A stretch of 42,732 nt of DNA from Chiloscyllium plagiosum (taxonomy: Eukaryota): contig NC_057719.1 of the NCBI RefSeq assembly GCF_004010195.1, positions 7,252,795 through 7,295,526 on the forward strand, read 5' to 3'. A program made the translations under genes and the position numbers. Positions 905 through 42,686 of this stretch are shown here, one piece after another. The notes beneath the pieces were generated by a model that was given only the letters and a program-made list of their open reading frames with translations, did not search any database and was not told the DNA's origin. Numbering within the stretch: the first letter of the stretch is position 1; the number at the start of each line of letters is the position of its first letter.

Positions 905-1003
905 CCCAGTCCTGAAGAAGAGACCTACCTGAAACATCGACTCTCCTGCTCCTCGGAATCTGTCTGATCTGCTGTGCTTTTTCCAGCACCACATTTTATC
1001 AAC
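905..1003 (+). mobile_element. PLE 3'-end fragment (family A) with decayed hammerhead core
   Basis: CTGAAGA (912-918)...GAAACATC (931-938), flanked by complementary AGTC/GACT, then ctcctgctcctcgga...ctgctgtgctttttccagcaccac shared with copies at 8401-8495 and 26307-26397. Confidence 0.7.
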
Positions 1004-2469
1004 TTTACATACCTGTGCTCAACATGAGTACCAATGATTATCATTACATTTAGCACTACGTAATGAAATCTCATGAAACTTTTAACTTTGAATTCCAGCA
1101 GAATTGCTTTATATTTTCTGCTTTCAGTCAGTTAAGGGTTTGACTAGACAATGGAAATTTTCCCATCTACAGCAGAGATAAATAGGTGTCTATTTCAATT
1201 GCTGCAACAAGGTCCTCAATATCAACCACCTATCCCCCATGAATCATGCAGAAGAGGATTAGAATGTGGTTTAAAATTATAAAATGAGGAATCTGTCTTC
1301 AATCTGCCTTGTAAGCATCTGATACTGCTTTTGTGATAATTGCCCTTCTTAGTGTGCAAATTACTTTCCTCCAAGAGGTAGGACAGTTCACAAACATGTT
1401 TCTGTCAGCTTCCCACAATATAATTGTGTTTTTTTTCATGGAACCAGTAGTGAGAGAGAGACTGGAGGTGTTGGCTCAAGGTGTTAAGTGATTTTTACAG
1501 AAATCTCTGTGGGCCATGAGAATGAAGAGGCTGTCAGGAAATATTTGCAATCCCTCACCTTCCCTGATGTTATTGAATCTCTTTCCCAATCCTTTAGCCT
1601 ACATCAGTCTTTGGCTTCCTCTCACCTTCCAGTTCTAATTTTCCACTCCCTCCCTCCTTTAATGACCTCCTTCCCCTCCACATGGAGATGACAAATAGCC
1701 TCTTCACTTGCATGCTCGATTCTCCTTACTTATGTGGGATTATCCTTGAATATAGTCTTCTGTCAGCCAGCTACTGATTTGGCTGGCAATTGGGTAGAAA
1801 TTGGAAGAGATAAAAAATATCTATATTCTTTAAAAAATTGGAAGAGAAAGATTATAAGCAGCTCTGTCTAGGCTTTCTTTTAAGCTTAATGATGAACTTT
1901 AAAATGAATTCCTTTAGCTGTTGTTTTAGTCACTTACAGTAGATTGAGTCTCACCATGTTGGTGTGAACTTTTTAATTTTTCAGTCATACAGAGTAAAAT
2001 GAAAGTTGTGCTCTCCTTAAGTTGCGGTTTTGTAGTATTGACGTTGCCAGCCTCTGACATCTGGGAATGAAAACGCTGCAAGTTAATTAAGTTGACTGCC
2101 AGGAAGTGCTGTTTGAAAAAAAATCTGTCTTTAAGGCTGATGGCTTTTACAAATGCTCAAACTTTCATCTGTTGCTGCAGGTTATTTGCCTCTAGGTGGA
2201 GAATTAATGGCATTGTCCAAACACAGATGGAGCCATGGAATATACTAGATAAGCATGTTCTGGAAATTTACAAACAAAAATGTCTCCGGTTTATGGATTG
2301 AAATAACATTTCTTGCTTTCCTGGCAGTTGTAGATGTAGTTTTGTCCTCAAAGACTGTGTTATTATGCAGTTTTTTCCTCTCCAAATGGTATAATTTGGA
2401 AAATAATTTTCTAATTCACAGTGTGACTGACCTCTTATCATTTAATCCTGGAAGTTATAACTCCACAAT

Positions 2470-2715
2470 AGGTCTCCCATTTAAGATCAAGATGAGGAAT
2501 TTCTTCGCCCAGGGTCATTAGTCTTTGGAATTTTCTTACAGAGAGCAGCAGAAGCTGGGTCATTGAATATTTAGAAGTTATAGTTGACAGATTTTTGACA
2601 AGGGAATCTTGGGTCATTGAGGTCAGAGATGTTCAGATCACAATCCTATTTACTCTGACTGTGTTGAATGGTAGAGGAATCTTCATGGGCCAAATGCTAC
2701 TACTAGGAACTTAAG
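2470..2715 (+). mobile_element. Old CR1-type LINE 3'-end remnant
   Basis: gatgaggaatttcttc...tctttggaatt...gtcattgaatatt resembles the CR1 ORF2 C-terminus/3' UTR seen at 24520-24620 and 40520-40620. Confidence 0.6.
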
Positions 2716-2776
2716 ATGCAAATATTTTTGTTGCTTGCAAAATTACTGCCTTTCGTGGCATTATCCTTTGCAGAAC

Positions 2777-4820
2777 CATAGAATCATACAGTGCAGAATA
2801 GGCCTTTCAGCCCATCAAGTCTGCACTGATAATACCTGACTTTCAAATTTCATATTTACTAGTACTTTGTCCATAGCCCAGAATATTAAAATGTGCCAAG
2901 TGTTCACCCAGTTATTTCTTAAAGGATTTGAGGCAACTCACCTCTACCAGCCACCCAGGCAACGTATTCCAAACCATCACCAATCTCTGAGTAAATCAAG
3001 TTTTTTCTCACATCTCCCAATATCTCCCCCCAGCCCCCATGCCTCCTTATGATTGACCCTTCAACTAAGGGAAACAGCTGCTCCTTACTCCTCTTGTCCA
3101 TGCTCCTCATAATCTTGTACATCTCAATCAGATGACCCCTCAATCGTCTCTGCTCCAACGAAAACAACCCAAGCCTCAACCTTTCCTCATTACTTAAATT
3201 TTCCATTTCAGGGAACATACTCATTCCAGTATAATCACATCCTTCCTGTAATGAGGCAAGGCAGCTAGAACTGCACACACAATTTTCACTATGGTCTCAC
3301 CAAACTTCTATACAAATCCAACATGACTTCCCTTCTTTGTAATCCATACGTCGATAAACGCAATTCTCACATATGCCTTTTTCACCACCGTATTTTCCTC
3401 TTCAGATCTACGAACAGATGTGTCAAGGTCCCTTTGTTCCACAGCACTGCATAGTCTCATGCATTCATTAAATAGTTTCTTGTCAAATTGCTCCTTCCAA
3501 AGTGAATCAGCTCTCACTTTTCAGCATTAAATTCCATCTGCAACTTATCTGCCCATTTGACCATTCCATTTATATCTTGTAGTCCAAGGCACTCAACCTT
3601 ACTGTTAAGCACCTGAAAATCTTTGTGTTATTTACAGTGTATCATTTTACTATTCCAACCCCCACCCCCACACAATCATCTGTGCTATATATATAAAACT
3701 GACAAATGATCAGGAACCCAGCACAGATCCCTGTTGGTCATCACTGGACACTCATTTTCAGACACTAAGGCAGCCCTCTGTCATCACCCTCTGTCTCCGA
3801 CAACTGAACCAATTCTGAATCCACTTTATCAAATTATCCTGTATCCCATGCACATTCACCTTCTTGATAAATCTCCTATGTGGGACCACAGATGGAGCTT
3901 TGCTAAAATCCATATGAACTATATCAACTGCCCTACCCTCATTGACATACCCGATCACCTTAAAAATTTCAAATTTGTTAGGCGTGACCTTCCTCCAACA
4001 AAGCCATGGTGACTATCCCTGATCAGACCTTGCTTCTCCAAGTGGAAATAGATGCTCTCCTTCAAAGTTTTCTCCAATAGTTTCCCCTACCATTGCCATG
4101 AGACTCGCTAGTCTGTTCCCTGACTTATCTTTATAATCCTTCTTGAATATTAGAACCAAAGTTTCTGTTCACCTTTCCTGTGGCCAGAAAAGAATTAAAA
4201 ATTTGGGTCAATGCCCCTGCAATCTCCTCACTTGTCTCCCATGATAGCCGAGAAAACATTTCATCTGTACCTGGAGATTTGTCTACTTTTTAGCAAAAAG
4301 GGGGAACAGTAGCTTAGTGGTATTATTGCTGGACTGTTAATTCAGAGACCTAGGCAATGTTCTGGGTTCAAATCCCACCACGGCATATGGTGGAGTTTGA
4401 ATTCAATAAAAAGAAATCTGGAATTAAGAGTCTAATGATGACCGTGAATCCATTGTCAATTGTTGGTTCACTTATATCTTCTTTGGAAGGAAACTGCTAT
4501 CCTTACCTGGTCTTGCCTACATGTGCCTCCAGACCCACAGCGCTGCCCTCACTCCATGAATGAATACCAGAAACAAAGCCTGCCAAAACTTCCAATACTT
4601 TGTCCTTCTCTGTGTCAATTTGCTCAATCACTTCAGTCTAATCTGCCTGGGTTGCATACCTTCATCATCATTCTCTTGGGTAAAGTATTAGTTCAACACT
4701 CTACCAATGTCCTCTGGCTTCACCTACAAAATGCCCCCTTGGGCCCTACTCTTTCTATGGTTATCCTCTTTCCATTGATGTACTTGCAGAGTATCTTGGG
4801 ATTTTCCTGCTTTTACCAGC
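2777..4820 (-). mobile_element. Degenerate CR1 LINE (RT and 3' end), interrupted by a SINE at ~4302-4565
   Basis: Minus ORFs give GLFSLEQRRLRGHLIEMYKIM and GRAVDIVHMDFSKA...WIQNWFSCRRQRV; catagaatcatac tail near 2777. Confidence 0.85.
4302..4565 (+). mobile_element. Old tRNA-derived SINE
   Basis: A-box-like tagcttagtgg and B-box-like ggttcaaatcc; core and tgaatgaat tail shared with 9360-9707 and 25322-25625. Confidence 0.7.
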
Positions 4821-6335: not shown

Positions 6336-6833
6336 TTTAGGGTGTAGGTTTGCTCGCTGAGCTGTAGGTTTGATATCCAGACGTTTCATTACCTGGCTAG
6401 GTAACATCATCAGTGGCGACCTCCAAATGAAGCGAAGCTGTTGTCTCCTGCTTTCTATTTATATCTTTCTCCTGGATGGGGTTCCTGGGGTTTGTGGTGA
6501 TATCAATTCCTGTTCGTTTTCTGAGGGGTTGATAGATGGCATCTAGATCTATGTGTTTGTTTATGGCGTTGTGGTTGGAGTTGCCAGGCCTCTAGGAATT
6601 CTCTGGCATGTCTTTGCTCAGCCTGTCCCAGGATAGATGTGTTGTTCCAGTCAAAATGGTGTTTTTTTCCTTCCGTGTGTAGGGCTACGAGGGAGAGAGG
6701 GGTTGTGTCTTTTTTTGGCTAGCTGGTATTCGTGTATCCTGGTGGCTAACTTTCTTCCTATTTGCTCTATGTAGTATTTGTGGCAGTCCTTGCATGGAAT
6801 TTTGTAGACGATGTTGGTTTTATCCATGGGTTG
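6336..6833 (-). mobile_element. PLE (family B) 3' part with GIY-YIG endonuclease remnant and hammerhead motif
   Basis: Minus strand reads NIVYKIPCKDCHKYYIEQIGRKLATRIHE...HHFDWNNTSILG...REFLEAW. It splits the CR1 between EILNE and YFASVFT. Confidence 0.88.
6377..6416 (-). ncRNA. Minimal type-I hammerhead ribozyme motif (PLE family B)
   Basis: Minus strand: CCA CUGAUGA U GUUACC-uagcca-GGUAAU GAA ACGU C UGG. Intact core, 6-bp helix II, palindromic helix III, 3-bp helix I. Confidence 0.72.
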
Positions 6834-8229
6834 TATTTTGCATCGGTATTTACTGTGGAAAAGGACATGGAAGATATAGAATGGAGGGAAATAGATGGTG
6901 CTATCTGAAAAATGTCCACATTACAGAGGAGGAAGTGCTGGATGTCTTGAAATGCATAAAAGTGAATAAATCCCTAGGACCTGATCAGGTGTATCCTAGA
7001 ACTCTATGGGAAGCTGGAGAAGTGATTGCTGGGCCTCTTGCTGAGATATTTATACCATCGACAGTCACAGGTGAGGTGCCAGAAGGCTGGAGGTTGGCTA
7101 ACGTGGTGCCACTTTTTAAGGAAAGTGGTAGAGACAAGCCAGGGAACTATAGACCAGTGACCCTGACATTGGTGGTCAGCAAGTTGTTGGAGGGAATCCT
7201 GAGGGACAGGATGTACATGTATTTGGAAAGGCAAGGACTGATTAGGGATAGTCAACTTGGCTTTATGCGTTGGAAGTCATGTCTCACAAACTTGATTGAG
7301 TTTTTTGAAGAAGTAACAGAGGATTGATGAGGGCCGAGTGGTCGGTGTGATCTATGTGGACTTCAGTAAGTATGCCTGGTTAAAAAAGACCAAAATTTTT
7401 AAAATTGTACTCACGGCTCGCAATAAGCATTAATTGCTTGGCAAGTGTGATCAGTGGAGTGCCACAAGGATCGGTGCTGGGTCCACTGCTTTTCATCATT
7501 TATATAAATGATTTGGTTGAGAGCATAAGAGGTACAGTTTGTAAGTTTGCAGATAACACCAAAATTGGAGGTGTAGTGGACAGCGAAGAACTTTACCTCC
7601 GATTACAACAGGATCTTGATCAGATGGGCCAGTGGACGGAGGAGTGGCAGATGGAGGTTAATTTAGATAAATGTGAAGTGCTGCACTCTGGGAAAGCAGA
7701 TCTCAGCAGGACTTATACACTTAATGGTAAGGTCCTAGGGAGTGTTGCTGAACAAAGAGACCTTGGAGTGCAGGTTCATAGCTCCTTGAAAGTGGAGTCG
7801 CAGGTAGATAGGATAGTGAAGGCGGCATTTGGTATGCTTTTCTTATTGGTCAGAGTATTGAGTACAGGAGTTGGGAGGTCATATTGAGGCTATACAGGAT
7901 ATTGGTTAGGCCACTGTTGGAATATTGCTTGCAATTCTGGTCTCCTTCCTATCGGAAAGATGTTGTGAAACTTGAAAGGGTTCAGAAAAGATTTACAAGG
8001 ATGTTGCCAAGGTTGGAGGATTTGAGCTATAGGGAGAGGTTGAATAGATTGATGCTGTTTTCTCTGGAGCGTCAGAGGCTGAGGGCTGGCTTTATAGAGG
8101 TTTATAAAATTATGAGGGGCATGGATAGGGTAAATAGACAAAGTCTTTTCCCTGGGGTGGAGGATTCTGGATTAGTGTGGTGCTGGAAAAGCGCAGCAGT
8201 TCAGGCAGCATCCGAGGAGCAGGAAAATC

Positions 8230-8257
8230 GACGTTTCGGGCAAAAGCCTTTCATCAG
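8230..8257 (-). ncRNA. Minimal hammerhead ribozyme core (family A)
   Basis: Minus strand CUGAUGA A AGGC-uuuu-GCCC GAA ACGU C; first helix II pair is mismatched. Confidence 0.55.
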
Positions 8258-8400
8258 GAATAGAGGCAGAGTACCTTCTGTATGGAGAGAGAAATGAGAG
8301 GAGGGTGGGGGTGTGAAGTTTGCCAATGATATGATGTTAGGTAGACAGGCAGGTCATACTGAGGAGGTGGGGAGGCTGCAGAGGCACTCTGCCTCTATTC

Positions 8401-8428
8401 CTGATGAAGGGCTTTTGCCTGAAACGTC
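8401..8428 (+). ncRNA. Minimal hammerhead ribozyme core (family A), sense to FOXN3 pre-mRNA
   Basis: CUGAUGA A GGGC-uuuu-GCCU GAA ACGU C; helix I is weak (about 2 bp). Confidence 0.62.
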
Positions 8429-9359
8429 GATTTTCCTGCTCCTCGGATGCTGCCTGAACTGCTGTGCTTTTCCAGCACCACTCTAATCCAGAATCTGGTT
8501 TCCAGCATCTGCGTCATGGTTTTTACCTGGGGTGGAGGAGTCCAGAACTAGAGGGCATAGGTTTAGGGTGAGGGGGGAAAGATACAAAAAAGACCTAAGG
8601 GGCAACGTTTTCACGCAGAGGGTGGTACGTGTATGGAATGAGCTGCCAGAGGAAGTGGTGGAGACTGGTACAATTGCAACATTTAAGAGGCATTTGGATG
8701 GGTATATGAATAGGAAGGGTTTGGAGGGATATGGGCCGGGTGCTGGTAGGTGGCACTAGATTATGTTGGGATATCTGGTCTGCATGGACGAGTTGGACCG
8801 AAGGGTCTGTTTCCATGCTGTACATCTCTGACTCTATGACAACTCTTTTCATGCAAATCTTTAACCCAACATAGCAAAACAATCAAATAGCATTTGCTGA
8901 AGTATTAGTTTGATGCAAGGTGCAATTTTAACCTCCTTTTCATATTTTATCATGGCAGTTTTCTGTACTTAAATGAGTAGGCTACAATATATAATTAGTG
9001 ATATTAACTTGTTGCATAATGGGAATAACTGTAAAACATACCACGGGTTTTAAAGTGATGAATACTTGTATAAAGACATTGTATCTTTTTACATACTCAT
9101 TAATCTCTCCTTCTATTTTGCTGGTCTGTTGGGAAATTTTACTTTCTTAAAGGCATTATATCATTGCATTTATATTTATGTAGATGAGTTCCGAATTAAT
9201 TTTGCTTCCAATGACTTACAGCATAGAAGTGGATTCACTAGCAAAGCTTAAAATAATCGAAGTTTCACAGTCTCATACTGGACAGTTAACCTGGGAAAAC
9301 ATTCAACTGCTCAGATGAATAGAAGTACCAAATGGAGTGCTACAATTCAAGAAGCTTTT

Positions 9360-9707
9360 TAAAACAAAATTCATGAGATGTGGGCATCACTGGCTGGGCC
9401 AACATTTGTTTCCTGTCACTAATTGCCCAGAGGGCAGTTAAATGTCAGCCACATTGCTGAGAGTCTGGAGCCACCGCAGGCCAGAGCAGTAAGGATGGCT
9501 TTTTCCTGCCCTAAAGAACGTTAGTGAACCAGATGTTTTTTCTGACAATTGACAATGGATTCATGGTCACCGTTTGACTGTTTAATTCCAGGTATTTATT
9601 CAAATTCCACCATCTGCTGTGGCAGGATTCGAACCCAGGTCCCCAGAACATTGCCTGGGTCTCTGGATAAATAGTTAGTGATAATACGACCCTAGGCCAT
9701 TGCCTCT
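9360..9707 (-). mobile_element. Old tRNA-derived SINE
   Basis: Reverse complement has B-box GGTTCGAATCC (~9625-9635) and the same core and tail as 4302-4565. Confidence 0.72.
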
Positions 9708-11514: not shown

Positions 11515-11943
11515 TCTCATGCATTATCTTACCTAGCAGGGAAAAAAAAACATAGGGATAGGCCTGTCAGATGTGGGGTCTACCTTTTACTATAATCAGA
11601 CAGATGTGGCTGAGGCAAAGCAAAACATCTGAACTAGAGACCCAAAAGTTGTGTGTCGTCATTGAGACGGCATCTTCAGTACCAAGTTCATTAGTATACA
11701 AATGATATTTGTTTTGGTGTCAAAACATGTTCAAATAAATTTGCTGTAAATCAAGTTGCTTGAATAATATTTTTCAAGATGCAAAAGAATGATCAGAAAC
11801 CTGCAAGTTTCATACTTGAAGGTTTCAGAAGCATGCGCTGTAGAAAAAGCATGTTAGAGTTCTAATGGATACATTCCTTTGTAAACTGCGTTTTGGCACA
11901 GGGTACCATTATTGAACAGAGTAGGGCATGTTGATTTAATAAA

Positions 11944-11971
11944 CTGACCTACAGTTTCTTTTCCTTTTCAG
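11944..11971 (+). promoter_or_regulatory. FOXN3: Branch point, polypyrimidine tract and 3' splice acceptor of the FOXN3 last exon
   Basis: CTGAC at 11944-11948, tttcttttccttttc, AG at 11970-11971; a phase-2 junction gives (R)NGIANCRMR in frame with the ORF. Confidence 0.9.
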
Positions 11972-12518
11972 GAATGGAATTGCAAACTGTCGGATGCGGA
12001 ATGATAGCGAACAGTCCTGTGGCTCCCCTGTTGTCAGCAGCGACCCTAAAGAAGATCACAACTACAGTGTCGCAAAATCTTCCAATCACAGGAGTACATC
12101 CCCCACCAGCGACTCTACATCTTCTTCCTCTGCCGATGACCACTACGAGTTTGCCACGAAGGTTAGCCACGATGGGAGTGAGGCCAGTGAAGGGAGTTAC
12201 CACTGCCATGAGAGTTACAGCGAGACAGAAGATGAAGAGAGAAAAAACAAAAAGGAAAGCAAGGATTCCTTAGCAGACAGTGGGTACTTATCCCAGCACA
12301 CAAAACGGCAGCACATGACAAAAGCAAAAAAAAATGCAACTGAGACACTACCACTTAAAAAGAGGCGCACAGAAAAACCACCAGAAAGTGATGATGAGGA
12401 AATGAAAGAGGCAGCAGGTTCACTCCTGCACTTGGCAGGGATTCGCTCCTGTTTGGATAACATCACAAACCGCACTTCAAAAGGGCAGAAAGAGCAACAA
12501 CATTCGGCAAAAAATTAA
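11972..12518 (+). CDS. FOXN3: Forkhead box N3 (CHES1), terminal coding exon
   Basis: Translation [32 protein letters not shown]...[10 protein letters not shown]...DSGYLS...[50 protein letters not shown] matches the vertebrate FOXN3 C-terminus as I know it; TAA at 12516-12518. Confidence 0.96.
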
Positions 12519-16134: not shown

Positions 16135-16325
16135 AGAATATTGGAGAAACTCAACAGGTCTGACAGCATCTGTGGAGAGAGACAGAGTGTTAACATTTCT
16201 CAAGTCCAGTGGGCTCAAAACATTAACTCTTGTCTCTTACCACAGATGCTGCCAAACCTGCTGAGTTTCTCCAGAATTCTCCATTTGTTTTAGATTTCCA
16301 ACATTGGCAGTATTTTGCTTTTATT
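16135..16325. mobile_element. Decayed inverted PLE hairpin (family E) in the 3' UTR
   Basis: ggagaaactcaacaggtctgacagcatctgtggagaga (~16143) is the reverse complement of ccacagatgctgccaaacctgctgagtttctcc (~16240-16272). Confidence 0.75.
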
Positions 16326-16904: not shown

Positions 16905-17020
16905 AAAAAAACCTGCAGATGCTGGAAATCAGAAACAAAAGCAGAAATTGCTGGAAAAACTCAGAAGGTCTTGTAGCATCTGTGGAGAGAAATCAGAATT
17001 AATGTTTTGGACCCTTCCTC
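16905..17020 (-). mobile_element. PLE 3'-end fragment (family E)
   Basis: ctgcagatgctggaaatcagaaacaaaagcagaaattgctggaaaaactcag is the reverse complement of the ends at ~16240-16325 and ~20280-20345. Confidence 0.72.
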
Positions 17021-17776
17021 AAAAAAATATAGATTGCCTTTTTGTTGCACATGCTTTCAGTGAAGTTATCCTTGGCATTCCATATATTCTACCTTCCTTT
17101 CTTTCAATGCAGTTTCTAATTTATGTACTAGATTCCTGAAATTCAGCATTTAAACTATTAGATTAATAATACAACACTGCAACATGGTTCTGTGATTACA
17201 TTACTATCACTGGGGAGATGAATTTGGGTCTAATTGCTGAAAGTTTAAACCTGCAGCAATGACTTTGCATTAAACAATATTGGAAATTGTCAAATAACAA
17301 TATCAAAAAGGAAACTAGTGTACAGAATGGGCAAGGTGTAATTTAGTGGTACCAAACTATCACATCAAGGTATTTGTGACTATAGCAACTTTGTGAAGCA
17401 TAACTTCAAAGATTGTCGAGCGCTATATCAAAGGCAAGGAGTCTACTTTAATAGTTACATGAGAGGCCAAGTTTGTTTACTTTGGTATTTAATGATTTAT
17501 TAACTGCCATTTTCTTGTTTTCAAGAAGTATGTTGAATTTTTAAAATAGTTTTCTTTTCACAATGTGAGCAGTCAGAAGGCACGGGCAATCAACCAACCT
17601 TGGAGAAATATGACAAAGTCAACACAGAGGCATACTTGCATTCTACATTTCCTTAATGTTTAATCATTTTGCCAAAGACAAAAAAAAATCAATTGTAAAT
17701 ATCATTTGTCCATATATGAGAAAAGACTTTCTTGAACCTACCATAAAGTTTCTGTGATGTATTGTCTTCCAGTTGC

Positions 17777-17782
17777 AATAAA
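17777..17782 (+). terminator. FOXN3: Polyadenylation signal AATAAA (putative distal FOXN3 PAS)
   Basis: AATAAA with TGTA at 17758-17761 and downstream tgttgtcttgaattatgttgt; repeats resume about 200 bp later. Confidence 0.7.
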
Positions 17783-19062: not shown

Positions 19063-19280
19063 AGAAAGTGAGGACTACAGATGCTGGAGATCAGAGTCAA
19101 AACATGTGACACTGGAAAAGCGTAGCTGGTCAGCAGCATCTGAAGAGCAGGAGAGTTGATGTTTTGGGCATAAGCCCTTCAAAAATTCCTGATGAAGGGC
19201 TTATGCCTGAAACGTCAACTCTCTGCTCCTCGGACGCTGCCTGACTTGCTGTGCTTTTCTAGCACCACACTTTTTGACTC
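19063..19280. mobile_element. Inverted PLE hairpin (family A), 13-bp imperfect TSD
   Basis: AGGCGGCTTGAGG 19050-19062 and AGGCTTCTTGAGG 19281-19293; arms are reverse complementary. Confidence 0.82.
19189..19216 (+). ncRNA. Minimal hammerhead ribozyme core (family A)
   Basis: CUGAUGA A GGGC-uuau-GCCU GAA ACGU C; helix I poorly paired. Confidence 0.55.
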
Positions 19281-19350
19281 AGGCTTCTTGAGGTCCACCT
19301 TGCAGAAACCCTGGAGAACCAATTTGAACAGAAGTTGAACTCTGAGTACG

Positions 19351-19444: not shown

Positions 19445-19903
19445 CCTTTGCAGTCACAAAAAATGTAACACCTGTCAATTTACTTCCTTCCTCACTATCC
19501 AAGGATCCAGACACATCATCTACACAAAGCAGTGATTTACTTGCACTTCACTTAATTTAGTCTACTGCATTTGCTGCTTATTCATATGGTCTCATGTACA
19601 CTGGGGATACAAAACACAGACTGGGTGACTGCTTTGCAGAACACTTCCATTCTGTCCATAGAAACAGCCCCGAGTTTCCAGTTGCTTCCCACTCCAAAAC
19701 AAGTCGCTGTCACAACATGGCCTGCTTTCAGAACCATTCTCACAGACTCATTGTGTCCACATGATCAGTTTTTCTTCTATTCTGGCTGACTATCCCTTTG
19801 CCTAACTTAGGTCTTCTCTTTCTGGGTTCCATTTCTACCCATCTGCTCATTCCTTCTCATCACCACCATCATTCCCACCCAATGTCATGAGAATAAATAC
19901 CAC

Positions 19904-20193
19904 TGCATGTAGGTTTGCTCACTGAGCTGGAAGGTTCGTTTTCAGATGTTTCATCACCATACTAGGTAACATCATCAGTGAGCCTCCGGATGAAGCATTG
20001 GTGGCATGGCCCGCTTTCTATTTATGTGTCGAGGTTTCCTTGGGTGGTTAATGTCATTTCCTGTAGTGATGTCACTTCCTGTTCTTGGTGGTACTTAGTA
20101 TGGTGACAAAACATCAGAAAACGAACCTTTCAGCTCACAAGCAAACCTACATCCAGAACCTCAACCTGGGCTACAAATCTTCTCAAAACTCGC
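19904..20193. mobile_element. Inverted PLE element (family B), 13-bp TSD
   Basis: GAATAAATACCAC 19891-19903 and GAATACATACCAC 20194-20206; homologous to 6340-6500; minus-strand hammerhead core 19945-19978 (CUGAUGA U GUUACC..GGUGAU GAAACAUC). Confidence 0.85.
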
Positions 20194-20389
20194 GAATACA
20201 TACCACCTTTTCCTCACTACTGTCAGTTCTGATGAAGTCACCGGACTCCAAACACTGGCTCTGTTTTCTGTTTCCACTGAAACTGCCAGACAAGCTTTAC
20301 CAGGAATTCCTGTTCTTGTTTTAGATCTTCAGCATCTGCAGTTCTTTGTTTCATAATATAGTTAATAGGTTTATTTAAGATTGATGTAT

Positions 20390-21627: not shown

Positions 21628-21704
21628 AGGAAACAGTGAGGTCTGCTTGCTCCTCAGATGCTGCCTGACCTATGCTTTTCCAGCAACACACAGTCGACAC
21701 AAAC
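21628..21704 (+). mobile_element. Miniature PLE (family A) insertion, 13-bp TSD
   Basis: TTAAATCCCATCT at 21615-21627 and 21705-21717; a short inverted 5' piece plus the family-A 3' end. Confidence 0.8.
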
Positions 21705-21837
21705 TTAAATCCCATCTGGCAGGTTGTGGGCCGGCACCACAAATATCTATGCAAGTTGTCAATTTATCATCTTAAACTCAAATAGTCCATCAATCTACTT
21801 CAGGGAATCTGCTACCTTAGCATAATCTCACCTGCAT

Positions 21838-24126: not shown

Positions 24127-24378
24127 GATTAGATTAGATTACATTACAGTGTGGAAACAGGCCCTTCGGCCCAACAAGTCCACACCGACCCGCCGAAGCG
24201 CAACCCACCCATACCCCTACATTTACCCCTTACCTAACACTATGGGCAATTTAGTATGGCCAATTCACCTGACCTGCACATCTTTGGATCTGGGAGGAAA
24301 CCGGAGCACCCGGAGGAAACCCACGCAGACACGGGGAGAACGTACAAACTCCACACAGTCACCTGAGGCGGGAATTGA
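24127..24378 (-). mobile_element. HE1-type elasmobranch SINE, 5'-truncated
   Basis: Reverse complement gives gtggagtttgtacgttctccccgtgtctgcgtgggtttcctccgggtgctccgg with a CR1-derived tail and (aatct)n. Confidence 0.85.
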
Positions 24379-24506
24379 GTTTAAGATGATAAATTGACAA
24401 CTTGCATAGATATTTGTGGTGCCGGCCCACAACCTGCCAGATGGGATTTAAATTTGTGTCGACTGTGTGTTGCTGGAAAAGCACAGGTCAGGCAGCATCT
24501 GAGGAG

Positions 24507-25711: not shown

Positions 25712-26397
25712 AAGACCGAGAACTGCAGATGCTGGAAACCAGAGTCTAGATCAGAGTGGTACTGGAAAAGCACAGCAGGTCAGGCAGCATCCGAGGAGCA
25801 GGAAAATCGATGTTTCAGGCAAAAGCCCTTCATCAGTAATAGGCAGGGAGCCTGCAGGGTGGAGAGATAAATGGNNNNNNNNNNNNNNNNNNNNNNNNNN
25901 NNNNNNNNNNNNNNNNNNNNNNNNNNNNNNNNNNNNNNNNNNNNNNNNNNNNNNNNNNNNNNNNNNNNNNNNNNNNNNNNNNNNNNNNNNNNNNNNNNNN
26001 NNNNNNNNNNNNNNNNNNNNNNNNNNNNNNNNNNNNNNNNNNNNNNNNNNNNNNNNNNNNNNNNNNNNNNNNNNNNNNNNNNNNNNNNNNNNNNNNNNNN
26101 NNNNNNNNNNNNNNNNNNNNNNNNNNNNNTCCAACCTTCCAGCTCAGCACCATCCTCATGACCTGTCCTACCTGCCAATCTCCCTTCCCACCTATCCACT
26201 CCTCCATCCCCACCCCCATTCACCTATTGTACTCTTTGCTACCTTCTCCCCAGCCCCACCCCTCCCCCATTTATCTCTCCACCCTGGAGGCTTCCTGCCT
26301 CTATTCCTGATTAAGGGCTTTTGCCCGAAACGTCGATTTCCCTGCTCCTCGGATGCTGCCTGACCTGCTGTGCTTTTCCAGCACCACTCTGATCTAA
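25712..26397. mobile_element. Inverted PLE element (family A) spanning an assembly gap
   Basis: Arms ~25746-25874 and ~26268-26397 are reverse complements; hammerhead cores at 25809-25836 (-) and 26307-26334 (+, CTGATTA variant). Confidence 0.85.
25875..26129. other. Assembly gap (255 N)
   Basis: Run of N. Confidence 1.
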
Positions 26398-27765
26398 ACC
26401 CCACTTCACTACAGTACTAGAGTGTTATTTTATCAAAGATGATATCTTTAAGATGACTAATAAACTAAGGTTCTACCTGCCAGGTCGAATAAAAGAACTT
26501 GTGGAATGATTTGGAAAGCAAGAGAACCATTTCTTCCTCTACTATGTGGAGAAAGAAAAGCTACATTTGTCTTTCAGATGAGACAGAACTGTGTGAATAG
26601 AGGTCATAGTTAAAGATGATTGCTGTGAGAGCATCAATACTGTAATTACTGTGTCAATGGCAATACAATCCTGAAATATTTCACAGAATTAGAAACATGG
26701 AAAGAGGCTGGTGGGTAGGGTAGAAGAAGTTGATATGAAGGCTACAAAGAGTTTAGTTTCCCAGTGCCAAATAAATGCTTTCTTATTTAAAAATTATTTT
26801 CATTTAAAAATGTCTTCGTATTAATTCATTCTTAATGATATCATTTAATTTTGGAGAAGTGTCCAGGCTTTCAGTGTAGTTCTAAGTAAGATTTGGAATA
26901 AAAGCTCATGTTTAAACTGAGAAGAAATGAATACACATCAGCAGTCAATTACATTAACTCACCAGAGTGTGTTTGATCCAGGTTGAAATTGGCTTCTTCA
27001 AATAGTTAATTAAACTAATATTTGCAGGCTACTGAGAATTTTAGATTATTGTCAGATTATCATACCAAGTCAAAGAACTTTTCATCTTGATAATCTGAAA
27101 TTAGTGCACTCTGGGCAATTCAAAGCAGGATTCTAACAATGTGCAAAACATCAAGATGTTTACCTTGATATTTTCTTCATCAAATCAACAGTGACCTCGA
27201 TGTTTTTAGAGCAACTTCATAAACTGGATTTATTGAAAGTCACTGAAGAATAGAGCAATTACAATGATTAAAAGTGCAAAATATGACAAATGTAAAGTGA
27301 GGAATTATAACTAGATGAAGTGAATATGAGTTAACAGGCACACAGTGGTCAAATGCCTCACTGATTGTGTTTTAAATTGACTAGTGTCACTACCATCTAG
27401 AATCCTGGTTAAGGACAGCATATACATGGGCACACCACCACCAAGTTCCCCTCAAAGCCATTCACCATGCTAACTTGGAACTATATCATCATTTCTTCAG
27501 AAAGAAAAAATTGGCTGATGTGGTCAAGATCAATCTTACCCAGGCAATAGTGACACTATAGGTCACGTTCAAGAATGAATTAATACTAAGACATTTTTAA
27601 ATGAAAAGAATTTTAAAATAAAAAAGCATTTATTTGACTCCTATACAAAGGGATTCAAATTCTTCACTTTTGCATTTTGGAACACCCTCAAAGCCTCTGC
27701 CTTGAATTGCCTTGACTTTACAGGTGTTTGTAGTTCAAGTTCTATTTCTGAAACTGCTCCCAAGT

Positions 27766-28799
27766 TCAAAGTTCGTATAAAGATTTGTAGCTTGGGTGCC
27801 AGTTAGAGTTGTGGGTACGTTTGCTGAACTGGGATGTCTAGGTGATGTGCTCAGTGCCGTGAAGCTTCCTGTGAAAGACTGCTGTACTGTATCATTTGGA
27901 ATTTAATAAGTTTTGTTCCCACTCAATTCTGGTTGCCCATTCCAGTTGCTTGTTGCAGTGGCCTGTATATTGGGTCTCAGTCTGTGTTTATTGATGGTGT
28001 CCATGGATGAGTGCCATGCTTCTAGAAATTCTCTGTTGTCCTCTGTTTAGCTTGTCCTATTATTGTTGTGTTCCCAGTCAAATTTGTGATCCCTGCCATC
28101 TGTATGTATAGCTACTAGGAATAATGAATCGTGGCATTTAGTGGTGCTAGTCGTCTCCCTGCTTGTCCTATACAGTGTTTCCTGCAGCCCCAGCATATAA
28201 TCTTGTACATTACATTTGTCCTGCATATGATGGGTTTTGGCTCTTTTGTTCTGGTGAGTTGTCTGAGCATGGCTGTGGGTTTATGTGCTGACGTGAATTG
28301 GGCAGAGAAGTCTGACTATCAGTTCTGGGACTTATTTTATATAAGGTAGAGTGGTTAGTGTGTTGGGTCATGGCATGTAGGGACTGCAGGAAACACTGTA
28401 TAGGGTAAGCAGGGAGACAACTAGCGATGTGCATTCATGAACATCAACTCGCCACTAAACGCCACGACCAGCTGTCCCTAGTAGCTATACACACAGACAA
28501 CAAGGACCATGAATTCGACTGAGACAACGCAACAATAATAGGACAATCCAAACAGAGGACAGCCAGAGAATTTCTAGAAGCATGGCACTCAACCACGGAC
28601 TCCATCGATAACACATTGAACTAAACCCAATAAACCGGCCACTGCTACGAGCAACTGGAAGCAGCAGGAATGAAACCAAATAAATTCCAACCGACACAGT
28701 ATAGCAGCGCTTCATGGGTGCTCTATAACACTGCGGATGTCACCTAGAAAGGGGACAAGACGTCTGCAAACCACATTCCCAGCTCGGTGAACATACAGC
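27766..28799. mobile_element. PLE (family C) with inverted GIY-YIG arms, 14-bp TSD
   Basis: AACTGCTCCCAAGT at 27752-27765 and 28800-28813. Minus arm: TNVMYKIICWGCRKHCIGQAGRRLA. Plus arm: ...REFLEAWHS. Decayed hammerhead ctgcgga tgtcacc..ggggac aagacgtc at ~28731-28764. Confidence 0.88.
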
Positions 28800-30150
28800 A
28801 ACTGCTCCCAAGTGTCTAATCTCATGCGCAATTTAAACTTTTATAAAACTGCTCGTTTCTTCAAGCTGTGGCTGAACTTTTCCAAGTTCCAATCCTTCTC
28901 AGCTTAATCAAACAGCTTCACTCACCTCACTCTCAGCTGAAATGAATTATTAGTGGTTTGCAGTACTTTCTTTAAGCCCTAACCTTTTCCCATGGCATGG
29001 AGCCACCATTCAGTTGGACTTTTCCTGAATTCTGACTGCTTGAAATCTAACTGCAACACTTGTGCAGCCTGTAGCCATTTCTGTTTCACAGCACTCCCAA
29101 CTCTAAATTGGAACTGACTTCTCTCAGGAAAATTGCACCAGTCCTCTGCTTTCTTTTGTAGCTCTGTTGTAAAATATAACTTTAAAATAGAATAATTTAG
29201 AAAATAAACCAGAACCTAATTAAAATAAATACATGAAATACATCTATATAATTAAGAAATGTACAACAATTTTTGTAGGTAGTATTAGAATTTACTGTGC
29301 TTATTAAATATTACCATCCATAGGAATTATTTCTAGTTAATTACCAACATCATCTAAACAGAACTAATTAACCAAAGAGCCCAAGTATCATGACAGGTGT
29401 TCTGTTGCAGCTATGAAATGCAGGAGCTTTCCCATACCATGGCAATTCAGAGCAAATGCATCTGCAGAAAGTGTAAGCAACGAGATGCATTTCCGGTCAG
29501 GATTTTGATCTGGAAACTGAACTGCAGACACTGTACAACAGTGAGGCGAGGGGCAGAAATTTCAAGACGCTTTGATCCAACAGACAGTCACGAGTTTTAG
29601 AACAGAGTTAATTTCATGCTATTTTCATCAACAGTGTGGGACAAGAGATCAGACAGCAGTGAAGGAGCCTCAGACTTTGCAATTGTCAACAGAATTGAGG
29701 TTCTCTCAACCTGCGTAGATAAAGTAAGTTTGCAAGATGGGTGAGGAGATTGAATAGTACAGGAAGCGCTTCAAGTAGGGTGGATCAAAGAGCAGTGTGG
29801 TGAGGAGGATTGATGCTGTTCTCTGCAGCAAAGAGCATGGGTCCAGTCAGCTGTGCTGCCTTTTAAAAACTGTATTCTGGAACACAGGCATCACTGGCTG
29901 GCCTGTCCCTACTTGTCCTTCAGAAGGTGGATGTGAGCTGCCTTCCTGACCTGCTGCAGTTCCTGTCGTGTAGGTTGACCCACAATGCCCTTGAGGGAAT
30001 TCTAGGATTTTGTCCCAGCGAGAATGAAGGAATGATTATATATTTCCAAATCAGGATGGTGAGTGACTTGGAGGGGAATCTGCTGCTGATGGTGTTCCTA
30101 TGCATCTGCTGCCTTTGTCTTTCTACATGGAAGTGGTTTTGGGTTTGGAA

Positions 30151-30241
30151 CCGCACCACCTGATGAAGGAGCAGCACTCTGAAAGCTAGTGCTTGCAATT
30201 AAACCTGTTGGACTGTAACCTGGTGTTGTATGATTTTTAAC
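30151..30241 (+). mobile_element. 91-bp PLE (family D) insertion consisting mostly of a hammerhead motif, 13-bp TSD
   Basis: TTTGGGTTTGGAA at 30138-30150 and 30242-30254; homologous to 34628-34700 and 35070-35160. Confidence 0.85.
30157..30191 (+). ncRNA. Minimal hammerhead ribozyme motif (family D)
   Basis: CAC CUGAUGA A GGAG-cagca-CUCU GAA AGCU A GUG: 3-bp helix I, palindromic AGCU helix III, CUA cleavage triplet. Confidence 0.68.
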
Positions 30242-31299
30242 TTTGGGTTTGGAAGATGCTGTCTAATGATCTCTGGCAAATTTCTGCCGTGCTTGTGCAT
30301 AGTATACACTGCTGCTACTGAGTGTCAGTGATGGAAGGTGTGGATGATTGTGGATGTGTTGCCAATCAAGTGGGCTGCATTATCCTGGATGGTGTCAAAC
30401 TTGTTGAGTATTGTTGGAGCTGCATCCATCCAGGCAAGTGAGAGTATTCAGCCACATCCTGATTTGTGGCTTGTAGATGATGGGAAGTTAGGAGGTGAGT
30501 TATTCACTGTAGTATTCCTAGCCTCTTACCTGCTCTTTTAGCCATTGTGTTTATGTGCTGGGTCCATTCGTTTTCTGGTCAATGGTAACCCCAAGTATGT
30601 TGATAATGGGGCATTCCATGATGGTAACATCATTGAATGTCAAGGGTGGTGGTTAGATAGTCTCTTATTGGAGATGGTCATTGCCTGGCATTCGTGTGGT
30701 GTGAATGTTACTCGCCACTATCAGCCCAAGCCTGAATATTGTCAGACCTTGTTGCATTTGAACATGGACTGCGTCAGTATCTGAAGAATCTTGAATGGTG
30801 CTGAACACAGTGCAATCATCGTTAAATATCCCCAGTTCTGACCTAATGATGGAGAGAAGCAGCTGAAGACAGTTGGTTCTCAGACACTACCCTGAGGACC
30901 TCCTGCAGTGATGTTTCTGGAGCTGAGATGAGTTTTGATTGGTTTCTTCTATCTAAAACAATTTTACCGAATAGCTGAAATCTGTGGTGCTTTAGAAGTT
31001 GCATGAAGCGATTTGATTTCTATATTGAACAGTGATTAAATCATTCTAAAGTAATTATGCTTTCTTTCAACTTAAATCACACAGTTTCAATGTATCCTCT
31101 ATGGAAAGTTGCCATCCAACCTGTAGCTTCACTGAAGTACAATTTCACCCCCAAAATATTCAATGTTTTATTTTGAGTAGATTTCTGTCGTGTGACATTT
31201 TAGTTTAAAGGTGGTGTTGACATTAAGTGTAATTTATATTTAGATAGCATCTTTAACTTGAAGTGCAAAAGGAGGAGGTGAATAGCTCAGGTCTTATTT

Positions 31300-32872: not shown

Positions 32873-34627
32873 TATCTGTAATGCTGGAGGAGGAGGCCGC
32901 AATGGATCATCCACTCTGTGAAGATTACTGTGGAAGCTTCAGCCTTATCTTTTGCCCTGATCTGCTAGGCTCTTTCATCATTGAGGATGGGGATATTTAT
33001 ATAGCAGCCTCCTCCAGTGAATTGTTTAATTGTCCACTACCATTCATGATTGGATGTGGCAGGACTGCAGAGCTTAGATCTGATCCATTGGTTATAGGAT
33101 TACTGAGCTGTGTCTATCACTTGTTGCTTATGCTGTTTGGAATGGAAGTAGTCCTGTTTGGTAGCTTCATCAGGTTGACACTTCATCTTCAGTCTGCCTG
33201 GTGCTGCTCCTGGCATGCCCTCCTGACGTTAATGGTTGAGTGGGGGATATACCGGGCCAGATTACAGATTGTGCTGGAGTACAATTCTGCTGCTGTTGAT
33301 GACCCACAATGTCTCATGGATGCCAAGTCTTGTGTTGCTGGATGTGTTCATAGTCTGTCCCATTTAGCATGGTGATAGTGCCACACAACATGATGGAGGG
33401 TGTTCTCAATGTGAAGGCGGGACTTTGTCTCCACAAGGACAGTGTGATGATCACTCTTATGGAGTGTGCTGGTTTACTAAATATTCTAGTTGGTCATGTG
33501 GACCTCTTGGTCAATGTAAAAACTAAGTAATAAAAATATAAATGAAAAAGTAATAGTAATAGAAACAGCAAACTGTCATCCTTACCTGATCTAGTCGACA
33601 TGTGACTCCAGACCCATAGCAACGTGGTCGACTCTTAACTACCCTCTAGGCAATAAATGCTGCCTTGCCAGCGATGCCTTCATCCTGTGAATGAATAAAT
33701 AAAAAAAAGAAACACACTAAGTAATTAAAATGTAATGCAGGGATATACTTATCACTGTAATACTTTATTTATAACCTAAATAAAATAATGTAACTTCACC
33801 TTAAATAAAACTTAGCAAAGGAGAGTCTTCTCATTCACTCCATCAGGTGAGTACTTGGAGATTACAATAATAAAGTAAACTTCTAGTATTTCAGGTATAT
33901 ATTTTTGCCAATTTATCGAAAATGTCAGTTCATAGGGTGCCAGTTAAAACAAAGTTTGCTTTAGGAAGGACAGGAAACTAATAGACAGTGGAGGGGCAGC
34001 TCCATTGATTAAAACATAGCAGAGAGGGATGATTGAAGTTCCAGGAACTACGATGTAAAAGTAGTTTGGGTAGAGATGAGGAATGATAAGGCAAGAAGTT
34101 ATTGTGGAAGTAGTGGACAGGTCTCTAACAGTTACCTCGTAGTTGGGTTAATCACATCAGAAAAGCAAAGGTAGCCTTGGTGAAGTATTCATAGATGTCT
34201 TCAGGATAAGTTAGAAGAATGTGTTCTGGCACCAACCAAAAATAAACAAGACAAGACCTGATTTTGACCAGAGAGAATTATTCGTGACCTTAGTGAAGAT
34301 GGTAACAGTGAAAATAATTTGATTTAGTTTTACATTCAGCAAGGGAAGGGAGTGTGGATCCAAAACAATTATTTTACACTTAAATACGGTCAATTATGAG
34401 GGCATAAAAGCAGATCTAATGAAAGTGAAACATCAACTTAGGTTAAGTAAAGATCAACACTGTTGCAGTAGTGCACATTTTAGGAGATATTACAGAACAT
34501 AAAGCATATACAAGTTCTAGTCACAAAGAAGTTGTCCAAGGTAAGCACTCACTATCCCTGGTTTTATTTAACTACCTTGAACTTTTGAAGTGCCCCACAA
34601 AAATTTCTTTAATAATAGCTTCCAACA

Positions 34628-35195
34628 GCAGTGCTCCGAAAGCTAGTGCTTCCAATTAAACCTGTTGGACTATAACCTGGTCTTGTGAGATTTTTAACTT
34701 TGTACACCCCAGTCCAACATCGGCATCTCCAAATCATGGCTATCATCGACACCGCTAACTGCTGGCTTAAAGTGGAGAGGATCTCCAAGAAGATCACACA
34801 TATCGACACAGTCATCAAGTTTCTACAGAAATGCAGGCAAGCAGGAAAGATCCCAAAAGGATTACGGATCACGAAAAAGTTCACCTGAGAATGTAACTTT
34901 TAAAAAATGTTTTGTGATTTACATATGAAAGAAGTGAAACTATCATGGTTATTCTAACAGATAAGAGACTTAACAAACAATCAAGATTTTTTAAAAATGT
35001 ATAATTTCAGTGACATCACATTGTAAACTTTTGCTATGAATTCTGTGTCTTACAATTGTGTCCTCCACAACCACCTGATGAAGGAACGGCACTCCAAAAG
35101 CTAGAGCTTCCAAATAAATCTGTCAGACTATAACCTGGTGTTGTGTGATTTTTAACCTTGTCCACCACAGTCCAACACCGGTATCTCCAAATCAT
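34628..35195 (+). mobile_element. Partial tandem PLE (family D) with pseudo-LTR direct repeats and ORF N-terminus
   Basis: Direct repeats ~34628-34737 and ~35088-35195; ATG at 34736 starts MAIIDTANCWLKVERISKKITHIDTVIKFLQKCRQAGKIPKGLRI (FLxxC...IPKGL motif of PLE ORFs); CTGATGA at 35075. Confidence 0.82.
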
Positions 35196-40773: not shown

Positions 40774-41545
40774 ACCAGCAGAGCCAAGCTGCACTATTAC
40801 CTTTAATGGGAGCAGTTCCCATTTCACAACCTGCTGTACTCGAGTTTAAGTAATCACTACTTCGCAAGATTAATCATTTATAGAGTACCAATTTTCTGCC
40901 TTTAATTCTCATGCTTGCTGCTGGATCTATTACAGCATTGAGATATTTTTGAGGGTATCGCAGAATCTACATTGTGCTACAATTCAGTGCTCAAACACTT
41001 CCTGCCATAGCTCACTCATAGCCACAGGCCCCTGGTATTTTAAGCCTTTATAATGTTCCCTGTGCTATTAGTGGATAGTATTGAATGTGTTTCAAATTAA
41101 ATTAAATTTTAATGACTGCTTGAAGCCTTTTGAAACCTATGAGTAAAGATTGAATGATCGATTGGAAAATGGCTGGATTTTCACATTTCACCATGAACTA
41201 CATTAAATGCTGACAGGGAAAATAAAACATTCCTAGTTATAATTACTGTCTGAATTTAGAAAATGAAAAATCAATTAGTTCAGACAACTGAATCAAAAAC
41301 TGAAGCTCTCTTTGCATGTAGCTTATGATTTTACAGTTGAAACTTAATCAGCACCTCTCACTAAATGATATGGCCTACACAGGATTCCAATCTCACTCTA
41401 CCCGATGGCCTTTGAAGTGACCTCACCAACTGTAATTTGTGCAAATCAAAAGTTAACTCTTGAGCATTGTCCCAATTGTCTACATTTTTACATTCTCTGC
41501 AATTTAGCTGAGATTCGATCAAAGTTTTCAAGATATTTAGGAAAA

Positions 41546-41880
41546 CATAGAACATAGAACATAGAACATAGAAGAATACAGCGCAGTACAGGCCCTTGGG
41601 CCCTCGATGTTGCGCCGATCCAAGCCCACCTAAACTACACTAACCCACTATCCTCCATATACCTATCCAATGCCCTCTTAAATGCCCATAAAGAGGGAGA
41701 GTCCACCAAGCCCACCTAAACTACACTAACCCACTATCCTCCATATACCTATCCAATGCCCTCTTAAATGCCCATAAAGAGGGAGAGTCCACCACTGTTA
41801 CTGGCAGGGCATTCCATGAACTAACGACACGCTGAGTGAAGAACCTACCCCTAACATCAGTCCTATATCTACCCCCCCTT
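41546..41880 (-). mobile_element. CR1 3' end with (ACATAGA)n tail and an 86-bp internal tandem duplication
   Basis: Minus ORF RYRTDVRGRFFTQRVVSSWNALP; duplicated units 41620-41705 and 41706-41791. Confidence 0.9.
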
Positions 41881-42245
41881 AATGGTGGCCCAGGGACAAG
41901 CACCAACGCAGACTCACCTCAGATCCCACGAGACTCTACCTTTTGTAGCAGCCTGCCGTAAGATGTGAAGCGATCCAGAAGAGATTACTGACGCAAAGGT
42001 GACTACACTTAAATGAAAGTGCTGGGAATGGCAACCGTGATGGAACTCGCAGCCAAGGAAGGTCAACACCTCACAAAATGGTGGCTGAGAGTTCACAAAA
42101 TGGTGGCCCAGGGACAAGCACCAACGCAGACACAAAACTGCCACTGCTGTGGAAACACATGTCAGGCAGCAGCAAATTGCTGCTGGAAAGAAGCTGTGTG
42201 CAGAAACTGCAGCATTAAAAAAGAATATATTAAGCGAGAAGAAGT
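41881..42245 (+). mobile_element. Gypsy-type LTR retrotransposon gag fragment (zinc-knuckle region)
   Basis: MATVMELAAKE...NCHCCGNT...CCWKEAVCRNCSIKK resembles decayed gag CCHC knuckles. Confidence 0.6.
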
Positions 42246-42608
42246 TTGAGAGGCAACTTAATTGAGATATATAAGATAATCAAAGGGTTAGACAGGGTGG
42301 ACAGTGATAGCCTTTTTCCTTGGACGGTGATGGCTGGCCTGAGGGGACTTAGCTTTATATTGAGGGGTGATAGGTATAGGACAGATGTCAGAGGTAGTTT
42401 CTTCACTCAGAATAGTAGGCGCATGGAACGCACTGCCTGCAACAGTAGTTGAGTCGCCAACTTTAAGGGCATTTAAACGGTCATTGGATAGTCATATGGG
42501 CGAAAATAGAATAGTGTCGTTTAGAAGGGCTTCAGATTGGTTCGACAGGTTGGCGCAACATCAAGGGCTGAAGGGCCTCAACTGCGCTGTAATCTTCTAT
42601 GTTCTATG
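42246..42608 (+). mobile_element. CR1 3' end, same subfamily as 41546-41880
   Basis: RGNLIEIYKIIKGLDRVD...RYRTDVRGSFFTQ; ttctatgttctatg tail. Confidence 0.9.
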
Positions 42609-42611
42609 TCG

Positions 42612-42686
42612 TAAAAGCACAGCAGGTCAGGCAGCATCCAAGGAGCAGGGGAATCGATGCTCCGAGCATGAGCTCTTCATCAGGAA
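42612..42686 (-). mobile_element. PLE family A 3' fragment with decayed hammerhead core
   Basis: Minus strand CTGATGA A GAGC-tcat-GCTC GGAGCATC (TCATCAG at 42677-42683). Confidence 0.72.

Follow-up and report, generated by a model that had tools for sequence, protein, structure and literature searches.

We examined a 42,732-nt stretch of the 3.56-Gb genome of the shark Chiloscyllium plagiosum (contig NC_057719.1); this whole stretch is referred to below as the window, and all coordinates are positions within it. A preliminary description had listed 13 hammerhead ribozyme sites in this DNA and had ascribed them to Penelope-like elements (PLEs). A CUGANGA-type core, or a decayed form of it, was present at all 13, and every site matched family profiles made from genomic copies, the weakest being 20229 (E 1e-5). 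The site listed as 42677(-) has a real core, but 42677 is only its low end, and the core residue C3 lies at 42683(-). The sites formed three sequence groups: group A (912, 8257, 8401, 19189, 25836, 26307 and 42683, plus an older relative at 20229), group B (6413, 19978 and 28731) and group C (30160 and 35075). A profile search brought the window total to 22 remnants, nine beyond the original list. The motifs are homologous to the minimal hammerhead ribozymes (min-HHRs) described by Cervera and De la Pena in 2014 in the pseudo-long terminal repeats (pLTRs) of metazoan PLEs (PMC4209133).

Several sites had been called decayed, and indeed 10 of the 13 fail at least one of the features considered (core, GAAA, UH, palindrome, helices). 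The core is broken at 26307 and 28731, the GAAA at 20229, 28731, 35075 and 42683, helix II at 912 and 8257, and helix I at 19189 and 25836; at 19978(-) the palindrome is the sole lost feature. All features are kept at 6413(-), 8401(+), with a helix I of 2 bp, and 30160(+), and the core, GAA and A/U/H are kept in 8 of the 13 copies. A strict descriptor (helix I of at least 2 bp, helix II of at least 4 bp) matched the window four times (6413, 8401, 19978, 30160), whereas 200 dinucleotide shuffles yielded 0.02 matches on average, and the published descriptor (Fig. S7 of PMC4209133, helix I of at least 3 bp) passed three of the 13 sites (6413, 19978, 30160). The Rfam covariance-model scan of the window gave no hammerhead family at E<=5, which was expected because the motifs are without helix III. 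At the three intact sites the monomer hammerhead was predicted to lie 4-5 kcal/mol above the minimum by a program that does not score the special contacts of the core, and the opposite-strand pairs were predicted to fold as long hairpins.

The family A copies occur as solo units and as inverted pairs. The remnant at 909-941(+) is a solo unit with its 5' end about 5 nt upstream of the core, helix II broken and the palindrome lost; that at 42654-42685(-), with a decayed GAAA, is a solo unit beginning 3 nt upstream of the core. A back-to-back insertion with a short and a long tail occupies 8151-8539 within a CR1-like long interspersed nuclear element (LINE), and is bounded by a 14-bp target-site duplication (8151-8164 and 8526-8539). 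It holds two A1 motifs, one at 8228-8259(-) with a changed G10.1, so that helix II does not close, and the intact one at 8399-8430(+), with its 2-bp helix I, which the predicted fold encloses in a long hairpin formed with the opposite arm. In a second back-to-back insertion (19063-19286) the right-arm motif at 19187-19218(+) has a broken helix I and the left arm begins inside the core (19181-). The A1 motifs at 25807-25838(-), with helix I and palindrome broken, and at 26305-26336(+), with G8 changed, are the left and right arms of a single inverted pair (25718-26399) around an N gap (25875-26129). Since 8257(-) and 8401(+) share one target-site duplication and these last two form one pair, the independent insertions number fewer than 13. 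A decayed, old A-related motif at 20226-20262(+) marks an element 3' end, with a GIY-YIG remnant about 650 nt upstream (tblastn E 1e-8) and a B2 insertion in between, and an old A-related back-to-back pair without a core, absent from the earlier list, lies at 16135-16280.

In family B, the intact B1 motif at 6377-6416(-) has a helix I of 3 bp, a helix II of 6-7 bp, an ACGU palindrome and a GUC site, and belongs to a 5'-truncated, putatively Poseidon-type PLE at 6340-6833(-), composed of a GIY-YIG C-terminal remnant (tblastn E 6e-20), the hammerhead and a short tail. The B2 motif at 19942-19981(-) keeps core and stems but has lost the palindrome; it belongs to one arm of an inverted insertion (about 19903-20195), and the second arm (20087+) is without a core. 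A B3-like motif with decayed core and GAAA (28728-28767, +) ends an inverted PLE insertion that starts at about 27860 and includes a GIY-YIG remnant (tblastn E 6e-33); two group B window copies thus bear such a remnant themselves. The intact family C motif at 30157-30191(+), with helix I CAC/GUG, an AGCU palindrome and a CUA site, is part of a self-contained unit of about 90 nt, hammerhead plus short tail, located at 30138-30254(+) with 13-bp target-site duplications at 30138-30150 and 30242-30254. An internally deleted family C element at 34627-35195(+) comprises a partial upstream pLTR from within helix II, the start of the open reading frame (ORF), a 3' untranslated region (UTR), a hammerhead at 35072-35106 with G12 changed, and a long tail. 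We also noticed that the long tail in this element terminates at the ORF start codon.

The attribution to PLEs held, as did the claim of several families: in all three groups remnants of reverse transcriptase (RT) and GIY-YIG domains lie directly upstream of the motif in genomic copies. Long copies of group A have a CX4CxxC linker and a GIY-YIG domain there, with Pfam GIY-YIG above the cut-off in two frames (23.6 bits) and RVT_1 at E 0.008. Group B has RT and GIY-YIG upstream (RVT_1 E 1.4e-6 and GIY-YIG E 1.4e-4, both just under the cut-off), and the linker was not seen; in group C, RT, linker and YIG motifs were recognised by eye. A PDB sequence search with the family A ORF gave no match. According to PMC8557442, a CX2-5CxxC linker between RT and endonuclease marks Neptune and Nematis, and Penelope and Poseidon are without it; by this linker motif A and C are classed as Neptune-type and B as Poseidon-type. 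One family A copy, full-length with assembly gaps (L218), carries two motifs in direct orientation, one at each end and separated by 3.38 kb, and its start codon follows the first of them by about 165 nt; five B copies (L283, L284, L288, L290, L291) retain the hammerhead upstream of the ORF start. The start codon follows the core by about 120 nt in B and C and about 165 nt in A. Every main group includes ORF-bearing copies with the same end as the short units.

The genomic copies were sorted into 16 subfamily groups, eight of which hold only 3-4 copies; 15 consensuses could be parsed, and the remaining one has an internal deletion. Helix II had been said to covary, and in fact both helices I and II do so between subfamily consensuses: 95 of 105 stem cells were paired, where 5,000 shuffles that ignored relatedness gave 65 on average and 78 at most, and position 1 of helix I occurs as C-G, U-A and A-U. 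The core 3-8 pair is C3-G8 in 13 of the 15 consensuses, U3-A8 in one and C3-A8 in one. The closing pair after the extra nucleotide that follows A9 (G10.1-C11.1) is G-C in ten consensuses and G-U in five, and the palindrome is ACGU or AGCU in ten, the other five showing CpG-type changes in small groups. Helix I has at least 3 bp in B, C, A3 and the U3-A8 subfamily and 2 bp in A1, A2 and A4; 2-bp cases also appear in Fig. S3 of PMC4209133 (Culex, Drosophila, Oikopleura).

The U3-A8 subfamily is A-related and lies outside the window. In it C3-G8 is replaced by U3-A8 and helix I has 4 bp; the full variant core is present in 35 of 40 matches selected by similarity, and one locus has a PLE ORF upstream. 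Its 4-bp helix I is self-complementary (L248-L277, also L116, L119 and L135), nearly all copies begin 2-4 nt upstream of the core, many are perfect hairpins, and two long copies show a splice-acceptor-like pyrimidine tract ahead of the motif. In a separate cluster of family C (C2: L097, L133, L139, L176) positions 3 and 8 vary among C-G, U-A and C-A, and this may be a second U3-A8 lineage.

Within families, conservation of the core did not exceed that of the tail. For 111 family A copies the non-CpG core was kept at 0.925, against a tail mean of 0.899 and median of 0.945, and for 37 family C copies at 0.959, against 0.935 and 0.946; all 11 core bases are retained in 63 of the 111 A and 20 of the 37 C copies. 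Individual copies decay neutrally. Covariation between subfamilies, taken together with this neutral decay, therefore points to selection on the master elements and not on the copies.

To place the window in its genome, we used 100 segments of 10 kb from large contigs, taken at regular intervals at round coordinates and without regard to content (970,387 non-N bases). The profile search of this sample gave 357 remnants (263 A, 72 C, 22 B), one per 2.7 kb, and the genome total, extrapolated from these 970 kb, is likely about one million. Since 274 matches cover the core (one per 3.5 kb), the earlier estimate of one motif per 3-4 kb stands for motif-bearing remnants but not for intact motifs: the strict descriptor found 70, of which 54 have the palindrome, that is about one per 14 kb, with 1 per shuffle and about three that look like chance, and the published descriptor found 33, against none in five shuffles. 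Extrapolation gives about 245,000 intact motifs with helix I of at least 2 bp, or about 115,000 by the published descriptor. PMC4209133 reports about 4,000 min-HHRs in the coelacanth and about 9,000 in X. tropicalis after discarding ungrouped hits; the figure of 115,000 is more than ten times these counts, a rough comparison given that the frog count was family-filtered. With 22 remnants in 42.7 kb the window falls inside the sample range (mean 3.6, maximum 11 per 10 kb). A loose de-novo clustering of motifs returned mostly LINE noise.

Most A and C copies are units of 90-130 nt made of ribozyme and tail, often placed back-to-back. Within 100 bp we counted 56 back-to-back pairs in A and 20 in C, three tandem pairs in A and none in C, and tail-to-tail pairs in no A case and one C case. 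The preliminary description had linked the palindrome to dimeric cleavage; for these close pairs the idea needs qualifying, as arms back-to-back on opposite strands cannot form a dimer in cis. The hairpin junctions lie at the 5' part of the motif and differ from copy to copy. The 3' ends, counted from C3, are bimodal (about +90 and +125 in A, +85 and +120 in C, +75 and +110 in B), which corresponds to two fixed places about 35 nt apart. Pair rows combined a long tail with a short one in 35 of 41 cases for A, 20 of 20 for C and 2 of 2 for B; independent arms would do so in about half of the rows. A few of the rows in L104 and L146 share an arm. All four scored pairs of the window follow the same rule. 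Among the solo units, matches between flanking target sites reached at least 8 nt in 17 of 56 and at least 10 nt in 9 of 56 (controls 5.3% and 0.5%).

The 5' ends were measured against ORF-bearing references. Of the copies that could be used, 90 of 139 in family A (260 in all), 28 of 49 in C (72 in all) and 1 of 11 in B (22 in all) had this end at -15 to +9 of the core. In a larger set (identity at least 0.85, gap-free; 286 A, 112 C) the A ends peaked at -5 to -2, and no excess was seen at the cleavage site, with 6 ends against 5.55 expected in A and 1 against 1.73 in C. The peak is not likely to come from missing references, because the pyrimidine-rich upstream flank was found in only 2 of 90 short A copies. 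Single-cell poly(A) reads covered pLTR-ORF junctions (1063 in family A, 138 in family B, on both strands) with no pile-up of starts or ends, although a library of this type is a poor test of cleavage and the result counts neither way; a second sequencing run gave no reads on these junctions. No splice joints were seen among the RNA reads at the candidate splice acceptor upstream of helix I (pyrimidine tract plus AG in A1 and the U3-A8 subfamily). At one locus (L288:1303), 13 RNA reads run into an A-stretch near the end of the family B long tail, which may reflect polyadenylation or an A-run at this locus.

On this basis we propose that the PLE protein would start reverse transcription at two tail sites, one for each nicked target strand. 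When priming takes place at the tail near the 5' end of the RNA, synthesis would reach the RNA start, placed just 5' of helix I, within 90-130 nt, and such run-off would give the very short solo units and the hairpin pairs. Since the cleavage site is downstream of these 5' ends, the RNA copied was probably uncleaved. Cleavage, if any, is probably slow and dimer- or protein-assisted, and would serve the processing of tandem transcripts. In the literature, min-HHR monomers do not cleave and dimers do so weakly (PMC4209133), and the Anolis hammerhead cleaves only with protein and is dispensable for insertion (PMC11167929). For the same Anolis PLE two internal RT starts and cutting of both target strands are described (PMC11167929), and a tail on one of two inverted pLTRs was already known (PMC3846280, PMC8557442).

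Our reading, to which we would give a probability of roughly 85%, is that the motifs are minimal type-I hammerheads in the pLTRs of Neptune-type (A, C) and Poseidon-type (B) PLEs, that they are probably catalytic folds in active masters only, and that the window copies are mostly decayed and probably inert relics of two-site priming on mostly uncleaved RNA. Several points weigh against it. Among 19 B copies with an ORF start, two have their 5' ends at +34 and +35 (L294, L289), where 0.36 would be expected, and one of 29 A copies (L313) begins at +28, the cleavage site; these copies (L294:1237, L289:1244, L313) may be traces of cleaved templates, used sometimes. In ORF-containing A copies the 5' ends are scattered from -16 to +120, and the insertion ends are the sole ground for placing the RNA start upstream of helix I. 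Self-cleavage is here a prediction from sequence, with expected sites at +28 (A), +29 (C) and +34 (B), and the 2-bp helix I of the major A subfamilies falls under the minimum of the published descriptor. Family C had no Pfam match in the three pieces scanned, and the linker motif is the one character behind the clade assignment of A, B and C. Finally, the stem shuffle disregards relatedness, and several of the subfamily consensuses were built from 3-4 copies.

Alternatively, the short units and hairpins could be self-propagating non-autonomous elements (SINE-, retrozyme- or MITE-like, where SINE stands for short interspersed nuclear element and MITE for miniature inverted-repeat transposable element) with masters of their own. 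In A and C most copies are short units, these have target-site duplications of their own, upstream 3' UTR-like sequence is common to only 2 of 30 loci of the U3-A8 subfamily (L263, L258), and non-autonomous hammerhead-bearing PLE derivatives have been described (bioRxiv 10.64898/2026.07.22.740005). However, the hairpin centres vary by copy, as if each had formed anew, and ORF-bearing copies with the same end occur in every main group. Nor do the units behave as tandem retrozymes: same-strand neighbours within 100 bp are rare (three A rows, no C rows), and the window holds no tandem hammerhead-repeat array. We therefore regard this explanation as unlikely, if worth keeping in mind.

A further possibility is that the chief role of the palindromic min-HHR is to signal RNA pairing: two templates would be joined in a single dimeric PLE complex, and priming from both target strands would then produce back-to-back insertions. 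The 56 A and 20 C back-to-back pair rows, the junctions at the 5' part of the motif, the rule of long plus short tail and the lack of excess of cleaved ends would all agree with it, and the PLE protein, predicted to be dimeric, both cuts and extends the two strands (PMC11167929). Still, a palindrome of 4 nt is weak as a dimer signal and the compensated 3:8 core pair indicates selection on catalysis. Furthermore, Naiad PLEs, which PMC8557442 describes as without canonical hammerheads, form the same inverted structures, hammerhead core mutants still insert in vitro (PMC11167929), and self-priming on an antisense template is a published alternative (PMC3846280). The likeness between arms did not separate one-template from two-template models. 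As a general account of the motif we consider this quite improbable. It is also doubtful, as a bolder version would have it, that the genome records about a million events, mostly of a 90-130-nt ribozyme-plus-tail RNA primed twice, in which the palindrome was a dimerisation signal loading two uncleaved templates onto one dimeric complex and cleavage came later or occasionally.

It is very improbable that some of the motifs were co-opted to cut or regulate the transcript of the host gene FOXN3, whose last coding exon lies in the window. The motifs 912(+) and 8401(+) are in FOXN3 sense and upstream of that exon, and hammerhead and tail sequence occurs in RNA reads; but the motif at 912 is broken, the one at 8401 is expected from its predicted fold to be trapped in a hairpin of -244 kcal/mol, the density of remnants in the window is within the range of the genome sample, the copies decay neutrally, and the reads come from both strands with ends that do not pile up. 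That the motifs are chance matches inside repeats was rejected on the shuffle controls (4 against 0.02 in the window; in the sample, 70 against 1 for the strict and 33 against 0 for the published descriptor), the stem covariation and the fixed position in PLE ends, and is close to negligible in spite of the failed features at 10 of 13 sites and of the predicted folds lying 4-5 kcal/mol above the minimum at the three intact ones.

The motifs are thus an abundant shark example of a kind known since 2014. As in PMC4209133, they have CUGANGA, one extra nucleotide, G10.1-C11.1, GAAA-NN-UH with a palindrome and a short helix I, they occur in both pLTRs of full copies, and they are mostly solo, with opposite-strand pairs 100-700 bp apart. 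The U3-A8 variant is known there from S. mansoni, and the Fig. S3 rows for the Acropora Neptune element and Clonorchis closely resemble families A and B. On the other hand, Fig. S3 and Table S1 of that paper are without cartilaginous fish, Fig. S3 has no vertebrate U3-A8 row, and the 2-bp helix I of the main A subfamilies escapes its descriptor. Our literature search turned up no article on PLE hammerheads in sharks; Dfam, Repbase and subscription journals, which may already cover these families, lay outside that search.

A close parallel is the Poseidon element PAc of Anolis carolinensis (Frangieh et al. 2024, PMC11167929), in which the hammerhead is likewise at the pLTR-ORF junction and two RT starts define the tail. 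Unprocessed RNA is its main template, as is probable here, and RNA-seq ends are likewise absent at the cleavage site. The PAc ORF begins inside the hammerhead, whereas in our families the start codon is further downstream (see above), and our data are sequences alone. Head-to-head inverted pLTRs, palindromic junctions and a 30-40-bp tail on one end are also described for Penelope of Adineta vaga and for PLEs in general (PMC3846280, PMC8557442). The target-site duplications given there are 8-10 bp, against up to 13-15 bp here, and the inverted structure is in our case mostly cut down to ribozyme and tail and present at very high copy number. Non-LTR retrozymes (bioRxiv 10.64898/2026.07.22.740005) share type-I hammerheads derived from PLE pLTRs, and are reported there in one chondrichthyan, but they form tandem arrays whereas the units described here are solo or inverted.

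The value of this material lies in scale and testability, with 100,000-250,000 extrapolated intact-looking motifs, more than ten times the published vertebrate counts. It offers natural variants for cleavage assays, namely a 2-bp helix I, CUA and GUU sites and a vertebrate U3-A8 core. The in-vitro result that PLEs use uncleaved RNA as template, with two internal starts, gains support at genome level from the insertion ends, which also bear on the question of the purpose of the PLE hammerhead.

As for the host context, the last coding exon of FOXN3 forms an open frame at 11943-12518(+), which encodes the C-terminus of the protein, identical (100% over 180 residues) to that of Chiloscyllium punctatum and 91-94% identical to those of other sharks and rays. 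Nothing suggests a role of the motifs for this gene. The 3.6 kb after the exon had no match in a self-comparison of the window and were near-identical in sequencing runs of three organisms, consistent with a long conserved 3' UTR; no RNA run was listed as containing the FOXN3 stretch. Old A-related remnants lie downstream of the FOXN3 stop (16135-16280 and 16949-17021), and one of them is a 146-nt hairpin that weakly matches miRNA precursor models; if within the 3' UTR, these remnants could yield double-stranded RNA.

Much of the remaining window is LINE debris (RVT_1), which we take to be CR1-like. At 41559-42609 LINE 3' ends are nested in inverted orientation, and an exact tandem duplication of 86 bp there (41620-41794) is possibly an assembly artefact. 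An inverted duplication of 132 bp (98% identity) at 21650-21781 and 24375-24506, 2.6 kb apart, includes a fragment of family A tail. A weak tRNA-like match at 4309-4379(+) stands at the head of a repeat found also at about 9456-9690 and 33567-33620, which is likely a tRNA-derived SINE.

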